From assembly GCF_022045235.1 (NCBI RefSeq), contig NW_027266330.1, forward strand, positions 40,796,001 to 40,860,000: a DNA stretch of 64,000 bases, given 5' to 3'. A program made the position numbers and the translations under genes. Below are positions 61,803-63,568 of the stretch, in pieces (the stretch's first letter is position 1; each line of letters starts with the position of its first letter). The notes beneath the pieces are model-generated. The model worked only from the letters and a program-made list of their open reading frames with translations, had not been told where the DNA came from and searched no databases. Source of the DNA: Haliotis cracherodii (lineage: Eukaryota).

Positions 61803-63568
61803 ATACCAGGACCTGTGTGTTGTAGACCTAGCATTCCCTGTATATATCTTCTATAATACCAGGACCTGTGTGTTGTAGACCTAGCATTCCCTGTATACAT
61901 CTTCTATAATACCAGGACCTGTGTGTTGTAGACCTAACATTCCCTGTATACATCTTCTATAATACCAGGACCTGTGTGTTGTAGACCTAACATTCCCTGT
62001 ATACATCTTCTATAATACCAGGACCAGTGTGTTGTAGACCTAGCATTCCCTGTATACATCTTCTATAATACCAGGACCAGTGTGTTGTAGACCTAACATT
62101 CCCTGTATACATCTTCTATAATACCAGGACCTGTGTGTTGTAGACCTAACATTCCCTGTATACATCTTCTATAATACCAGGACCTGTGTGTTGTAGACCT
62201 AACATTCCCTGTATACATCTTCTATAATACCAGGACCTGTGTGTTGTAGACCTAACATTCCCTGTATACATCTTCTATAATACCAGGACCAGTGTGTTGT
62301 AGACCTAGCATTCCCTGTATACATCTTCTATAATACCAGGACCAGTGTGTTGTAGACCTAACATTCCCTGTATACATCTTCTATAATACCAGGACCTGTG
62401 TGTTGTAGACCTAGCATTCCCTGTATACATCTTCTATAATACCAGGACCTGTGTGTTGTAGACCTAACATTCCCTATAAATATCTTCTATAATACCAGGA
62501 CCAGTGTGTTGTAGGCCTATCATTCCCTGTATACATCATCAATAATACCAGGACCAGTGTGTTGACCTAGCATTCCCTGTATAAATCTTCTATAATACCA
62601 GGACCAGTGTGTTGACCTAGCATTCCCTGTATAAATCTTCTATAATACCAGGACCAGTGTGTTGACCTAGCATTCCCTGTATACATCTTCTATAATACCA
62701 GGACTTGTGTGTTGTAGACCTAACATTCCCTATATACATCTTCTATAATACCAGGACCTGTGTGTTGTAGACCTAACATTCCCTGTATACATCTTCTATA
62801 ATACCAGGACCTGTGTGTTGTAGACCTAACATTCCCTGTATACATCTTCTATAATACCAGGACCTGTGTGTTGTAGACCTAACATTCCCTGTATACATCT
62901 TCTATAATACCAGGACCAGTGTGTTGTAGACCTAGCATTCCCTGTATACATTTTCTATAATACCAGGACCAGTGTGTTGTAGACCTAACATTCCCTGTAT
63001 ACATCTTCTATAATACCAGGACCTGTGTGTTGTAGACCTAGCATTCCCTGTATACATCTTCTATAATACCAGGACCTGTGTGTTGTAGACCTAACATTCC
63101 CTATAAATATCTTCTATAATACCAGGACCAGTGTGTTGTAGGCCTATCATTCCCTGTATACATCATCAATAATACCAGGACCAGTGTGTTGACCTAGCAT
63201 TCCCTGTATAAATCTTCTATAATACCAGGACCAGTGTGTTGACCTAGCATTCCCTGTATAAATCTTCTATAATACCAGGACCAGTGTGTTGACCTAGCAT
63301 TCCCTGTATACATCTTCTATAATACCAGGACTTGTGTGTTGTAGACCTAACATTCCCTATATACATCTTCTATAATACCAGGACCTGTGTGTTGTAGACC
63401 TAACATTCCCTGTATACATCTTCTATAATACCAGGACCAGTGTGTTGACCTAGCATTCCCTGTATACATCTTCTATAATACCAGGACCTGTGTGTTGTAG
63501 ACCTAGCATTCCATGTATACATCTTCTATAATACCAGGACCTGTGTGTTGTAGACCTAGCATTCCCTG
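61803..63568. repeat. 53-bp (50-bp variant) array, ~33 copies, containing the ANKRD42 exon 7 acceptor and exon start
   Basis: CTGTGTGTTGTAG|ACCTAGCATTCCCTG repeated. Confidence 0.97.

Follow-up and report, generated by a model that had tools for sequence, protein, structure and literature searches.

In Haliotis cracherodii, the junction between intron 6 and exon 7 of ANKRD42 is repeated in a tandem array, and the last of its acceptors is the sole one that leaves the reading frame open. The array lies in the window, by which we mean the whole stretch of 64,000 nucleotides that was analysed (positions 40,796,001 to 40,860,000 of contig NW_027266330.1), and all coordinates refer to this window unless a contig is named. 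We consider it very probable that the array is a neutral junction minisatellite, that its last copy is used for the full exon and the donor 126 nt away that come with it, and that the in-frame TAG of its acceptors is a coincidence. The initial annotation had read the same stretch as an array of decoys, each of which runs into the acceptor of the following copy as a stop codon; the identity of the gene and the number of the exon given there were both borne out, and the interpretation was borne out in part.

The gene was identified by comparing the translation of 61402-61599 with proteins, which are ANKRD42-like (84 of 88 candidates passed), the top match being P0003 of Haliotis asinina with 100% identity along the query. 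ANKRD42 has 11 coding exons with GT..AG ends at 10 out of 10 introns, and four exons fall past the window end. It starts at 51716 on the forward strand and is divergent from a plakin-like neighbour on the reverse strand, whose first coding exon lies near 46.1 kb, about 5.5 kb apart. A Pfam scan of 46 of the 399 open reading frames returned one useful weak hit. The exons inside the window are:

51716-51722, + strand, ANKRD42 coding exon 1, spliced model
53830-54002, + strand, coding exon 2, spliced model
55408-55515, + strand, coding exon 3, spliced model
57714-57833, + strand, coding exon 4, spliced model
60597-60732, + strand, coding exon 5, joined to exon 6 in contigs of the assemblies X1 and X3 by a joint that skips 667 nt, GT..AG
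61400-61600, + strand, coding exon 6, ending in phase 1
63554-63679, + strand, coding exon 7 in the ankyrin-repeat region, 126 nt, phase 1 on both sides

Spliced with the acceptor ending at 63553, the gene encodes a protein of 501 amino acids, identical at 501 of 501 positions to P0087; P0087 is an annotation, possibly of the same DNA, and therefore not independent. The same protein shares 475 identical amino acids with P0003 and 474 with P0088. Among homologs of at least 300 amino acids (n = 67, the 19 shorter ones being dropped), 62 cross the exon 6-exon 7 junction without an indel, one carries three additional amino acids and four carry deletions.

Tandem Repeats Finder reports an array with a period of 53 nt, 33.7 copies and 94% matches, which straddles the intron 6/exon 7 boundary; this is well beyond chance, and the tandem array is real. 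Its 34 units fall into 13 types; 27 units are 53 nt and seven are 50 nt long. In phase with the last copy, 38 nt of each unit belong to the end of the intron and 15 nt to the start of exon 7. The acceptor GTTGTAG is present in 27 units, that is, in 26 decoys and in the real one. The features on which the argument rests are:

61803..63568, + strand, 53-nt minisatellite of 34 units (TRF and unit split)
63552..63553, + strand, AG of the true intron 6 acceptor (TAG), located in the last unit, sole acceptor with an open frame, supported by the P0087 match
62333..62800, + strand, 9-unit block, a higher-order duplication identical to 62960-63427
62545..62694, + strand, three 50-nt units without TAG (unit split)
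63172..63321, + strand, three 50-nt units without TAG, copy of the 62545-62694 trio in the duplicated block
63428..63477, + strand, seventh TAG-less unit, second upstream of the real one (unit split)

The two copies of the 9-unit block (468 nt) lie 627 nt apart, and this block duplication means that the array turns over and homogenises within the cluster. In the genome assembly (G000), all 34 unit matches, a lower bound, fall inside the array; a dispersed-repeat origin is thus not supported, and the unit probably arose from local sequence, since it is found at the array alone. The other genomes scanned held no look-alike of the array stretch. As for the TAG-less units, all seven have A at unit position 12 (as do 8 of the 27 intact units) and G at position 29, and six of them sit inside the exactly duplicated block. 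One single 3-nt deletion spread by duplication fits all seven. The initial annotation had held that such units lost exactly the TAG; seven units indeed are without it, but TAG and GTA are equally good readings of the 3 nt that were lost. Its estimate of about 25 intact acceptors ahead of the real one was right in kind, the exact count being 26. As 26 of the 33 upstream units keep their TAG acceptor and TAG loss is one of 14 distinct variants listed, no purge of the acceptors is evident. Selection for TAG loss was considered and rejected, the seven units sharing two linked variants that fit one deletion.

Splicing to the acceptor at 63553 alone gives the intact 501-amino-acid protein. All 26 decoys lead to a premature stop, as had been claimed, though the rule that each decoy reads into the TAG of the next acceptor is true of 23; the remaining three stop at the TAG of an ACCTAG (62568, 63195 and 63451), because the unit that follows them is without an acceptor. 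Likewise, the decoy peptide that had been proposed is exact for four of the 26 decoys, the others showing A>T, C>S or other changes. The behaviour of the 23 follows from simple arithmetic: exon 6 ends in phase 1, one nucleotide plus 53 makes 18 codons, and the TAG of the next unit therefore falls in frame as the last codon. After the decoy at 63500, stops occur at codon positions 17 and 19, the second of them inside the first 6 nt of the exon itself. Read in phase 0 or 2, a unit likewise terminates, either immediately or 10 codons on, so that all three phases meet a stop within one unit. When the 36 intronic nucleotides were shuffled, an earlier stop appeared in 50% of cases, the acceptor triplet was the first stop in 19%, and 30% had no stop inside the unit, in which case the frameshift then meets the TAG of the exon itself. 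The acceptor triplet is TAG in 9 of the 61 introns resolved by script, which gives a prior for an in-frame TAG of about 0.15 x 1/3 = 5%; with about half of the shuffled units free of an earlier stop, this comes down to 2-3%. At odds of roughly 1 in 20 to 1 in 40 for each array that spans an acceptor, the in-frame TAG, unlike the array itself, is not far beyond chance. Extrapolating from three genes, in which acceptor arrays occur at 2 of 61 other acceptors, one would expect many chance cases of an in-frame TAG acceptor genome-wide. The double role of the TAG thus looks like the arithmetic of phase and unit length rather than design. The premature stops come ahead of exon 7 of 11, more than about 50 nt upstream of later junctions.

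How common splice-site arrays are was surveyed at 124 splice sites of three genes for which near-identical proteins exist: ANKRD42 (intron 1 placed manually, 9 introns resolved by script), the adjacent plakin-like gene (17 of 17 introns) and a non-muscle myosin heavy chain on contig C12 (35 of 35); a myosin family search gave mostly one paralog cluster, and one myosin gene was used. The survey omitted 12 of the 20 fetched regions (L044-L055, which had no close protein), and L036-L040 are flank only. Six of the 124 sites (3 of 20 in ANKRD42, 2 of 34 in the plakin-like gene, 1 of 70 in the myosin gene) lie inside minisatellites; among 35 merged arrays across the three gene spans, six straddle a site. 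The five arrays other than that of exon 7 are:

57810..59136, + strand, 48-nt minisatellite over the ANKRD42 exon 4 donor, 27 decoy donors, an internal control
53427..53835, + strand, 68-nt minisatellite over the ANKRD42 exon 2 acceptor, five CAG decoys, an internal control
9646-10741, - strand, 42-nt array over the plakin/desmoplakin-like donor at 10723, 25 decoy donors
44884-46120, - strand, 47-nt array over the plakin/desmoplakin-like donor at 46117, 26 decoy donors
17691361-17692273 of contig C12 (G000:C12), 64-nt array over the non-muscle myosin heavy chain acceptor, 15 decoys

None of these five follows the acceptor-as-stop rule. Through the exon 4 donor array the frame stays open for 1.3 kb, so that decoy use there would add 16 amino acids per unit and escape nonsense-mediated decay. 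In the exon 2 array the five decoys end in CAG and the annotated proteins use AAG (53829); four of the five stop at an internal TGA, and the nearest (53763) is in frame and stop-free, adding 22 amino acids, which makes this array a better test case for acceptor choice than that of exon 7. The two plakin donor arrays run into stops after 8 and 17 codons, and all 15 decoys of the myosin array stop at an internal TGA. The notion that the acceptor acting as a stop is a special feature of the locus is hence not supported, on several grounds: the stop is redundant and phase-independent, the rule is absent from two other acceptor arrays and three donor arrays, and the TAG loss looks like one event. 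Tandem repeats make up 43% of the window, 34% of a repeat-rich region of 234 kb and 10% of the myosin locus, and with two of the three surveyed genes in that region the proportion of 6 in 124 is not a genome estimate; our small survey nevertheless suggests that abalones carry many splice-site arrays. Many further arrays come within 2-26 nt of a splice site but stop short of it (63696, 8268, 6465, 11655, 12343 and 15848, and beyond the window 66656 and 67655).

The question arises as to how the real acceptor would be told from its copies. Twelve of the 26 decoys are identical to it over -40..-1 and ten more differ at one base, which upholds the earlier view that intronic signals alone cannot single it out; over +1..+15 of the exon the match extends to seven of the 26. 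Given decoys almost identical on the intronic side, it is a fair inference that exon-side context or exon definition picks the real acceptor. Since the unit contains no consensus-like donor (five GT sites inspected), the donor at 63680 would be the only partner available to a decoy, and the resulting exons would measure 179, 282, 335 nt and up against the 126 nt of the real one. Only the decoys at 63500 (179 nt) and 63397 (282 nt) give exons shorter than 300 nt. Exon definition and the full exon context would accordingly favour the last copy and leave one or two decoys as serious rivals. The copies had been held hard to reconcile with first-AG scanning, a conflict that was overstated: scanning sets out at the branch point rather than where the intron begins, so that upstream copies do not contradict it, and intron 6 holds 103 AG dinucleotides anyway. 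Masking of the decoys by hairpins was also considered and rejected, as a predicted 13-bp stem covers the real acceptor just as fully; none of the 26 decoys is less accessible than the real acceptor in predicted folds (37 and 15 C, spans of 60 and 120). Compared with shuffled units, 201 of 1000 shuffles fold as well as the unit, and a fold z of -3.1 came from a null that destroys repetition.

Sequencing data bear on decoy use through 4 of 24 listed runs aligned to 60500-61855, a stretch that holds one unit. X1 and X3 are transcript-like by the guess of the tool, none being on record as RNA; X15 and X16 are DNA-like and come from congeners. The main contigs of X1 (2367 nt, depth 167.5) and X3 (2090 nt, depth 87) join exon 5 to exon 6, and in both of them matching ends at 61600. 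They are absent from the 30-nt decoy head (61826-61855), where a decoy-spliced contig would match, and the alignment did resolve joints with as little as 21 nt on one side. Depth in the last, decoy-specific bin is 0 in X1 and 24.1 in X3, well under the main contig of X3; the latter value may reflect piled-up intronic sequence or a decoy isoform. Among the joints listed (15 of 101), no decoy-joined main contig occurs in X1 or X3, contigs being prone to lose rare or degraded forms and nonsense-mediated decay being liable to hide decoys. The main mRNA in these two assemblies is thus not decoy-spliced, which leaves room for low-level use. A joint of exon 6 to exon 7 at 63553 is consistent with the protein match and with the absence of decoy-joined contigs, on which its placement rests. 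In the congener X15 a contig breaks off at 61832, precisely 30 nt inside unit 1, which is how a graph of 31-mers would behave on meeting a repeat. X16 shows a depth of 375 against about 32 nearby, a depth that is not a copy number. Both hint that congeners share the array, which would then have persisted for some time. Two intronic stretches, 60764-61000 and 61640-61800, show very high depth in all four runs and are probably high-copy interspersed repeats. A degenerate single copy of the exon 5 donor region lies at about 60998-61025 (+ strand), about 276 nt downstream of the real donor; X1 and X3 contigs use the real donor, not this copy.

Taken together, these observations fit a neutral history best. 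Slippage or unequal exchange of local sequence would have made tandem copies of the intron 6/exon 7 junction, and the array would since have turned over by block duplication. The spliceosome would take the last copy through its full exon and the donor 126 nt away, an exon-side choice, and unit length and intron phase would merely coincide to place the TAG in frame; rare decoy transcripts, if made, would be removed by nonsense-mediated decay as ordinary proofreading. One might instead suppose that the array is a slightly harmful passenger, whose decoys, above all that at 63500, are used appreciably and destroyed by nonsense-mediated decay, arrays that end in stops being better tolerated. The close resemblance of decoys to the real site (12 of 26 over -40..-1, 7 of 26 over +1..+15) and the 179-nt exon of the nearest one speak for this idea, as do a stop in the seventh of 11 exons, a long way ahead of the last junction, and the fact that all three acceptor arrays have periods not divisible by 3 (53, 68 and 64). 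The last point has a probability of 0.30 by chance, however, the 48-nt donor array has no stop over 1.3 kb, the nearest of the exon 2 decoys keeps the frame and is free of stops, and X1 and X3 contain no decoy-joined main contig; we judge a harmful passenger unlikely.

It is tempting to see in the locus a selected regulatory device, in which decoys doubling as stops send transcripts to decay and ANKRD42 output is tuned by copy number or by loss of the TAG. All decoys run into a stop, 23 of them at the next acceptor, 26 of 33 upstream units keep the acceptor, and congeners may share the array, if the contig end in X15 and the depth of 375 against about 32 in X16 (again a depth, not a copy number) are so read. 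But a redundant stop that follows from length and phase, a TAG loss that fits one event, splice-site arrays that are common in the genome without the acceptor-as-stop rule, a window that is 43% tandem repeat, and no decoy isoform seen in the X1 and X3 contigs make such a device highly improbable. A bolder version, in which copy number is a heritable rheostat with decoys diverting transcripts to decay and TAG-less units damping it, and abalone splice-site arrays form a genome-wide layer of expression variation, appears to us very unlikely. To an assembly artefact or a greatly inflated array we give almost no credence, considering 13 distinct unit types in an ordered pattern with block duplication, and the raised depth and repeat-type contig break in runs from other organisms. 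The neutral minisatellite is what we retain, and the ANKRD42 array is probably inert.

The array belongs to a seemingly harmless kind of structure called mirages in amphioxus and also known from human F7 and CBS, of which ANKRD42 is a further case. In amphioxus, mirages are described as intron-exon boundaries copied in tandem, whose length is unstable and which leave normal splicing undisturbed, in Adh3 and the globins BflGb6 and BflGb9 (PMC3087553), to which troponin C and PGBD5 were added (PMC3902484); units measure 10-160 bp, the splice signal survives in many copies though not in all, and evolution is concerted (PMC3087553). Normal mRNA without aberrant forms is reported (PMC3087553, PMC3902484). 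Like the ANKRD42 array, amphioxus mirages consist of intron end and exon start copies, BflGb6 being of the acceptor type; our 53-nt unit falls within their range (PMC3087553), and the signal is likewise kept in many but not all copies (26 of 33). Unlike them, the present array is from a gastropod and not a cephalochordate, has 34 copies against 3-6 in BflGb6, and is known from one assembled haplotype, whereas length instability is described in amphioxus. In the 37-bp VNTR of human F7 IVS7, tested with about 50 constructs, identical pseudo-sites are described as silent and the exon-adjacent site alone as used, with no structure-based masking and no reading-frame rule, in-frame pseudo-sites being unused too (PMC1557585). 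F7 differs in being a donor case with 5-9 copies examined in constructs; ours is an acceptor case known from sequence. For the human CBS c.844_845ins68 allele, strong preference for the distal copy is reported, with normal mRNA as the outcome (PMC2630376); that paper speaks of a donor, and the title of Romano 2002 that it cites says 3' splice site. CBS shares the duplicated intron/exon junction, but it is a single duplication and ANKRD42 an array.

Poison exons and regulated unproductive splicing (AS-NMD) resemble the array in having a premature stop well upstream of the last junction, but the ANKRD42 array bears no sign of use, regulation or sequence conservation, and its stop is a by-product of the repeat. 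In the literature on Haliotis intron minisatellites and ANKRD42 splicing that was searched (subscription journals being mostly outside it), the papers listed gave no description of the locus or of such arrays in Haliotis. With 26 decoys, 12 of them identical over 40 intronic nucleotides, the locus offers a natural experiment that isolates what the exon side contributes to the choice of a 3' splice site in a mollusc. Were decoy use to scale with copy number, splice-site arrays would be a source of expression variation.

Two minor observations may be added. At 64.58-64.96 Mb of contig C12 (G000), more than 10 myosin-head genes are clustered, and both orientations occur among them. Within the array (61803-63477), unit position 29 carries a G>A change in 16 of 34 units, which removes an AG and creates CTAAC; the unit preceding the real acceptor is without this variant. 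Where present, CTAAC, which we take to resemble the branch-point motif, sits 47 nt before the next acceptor.
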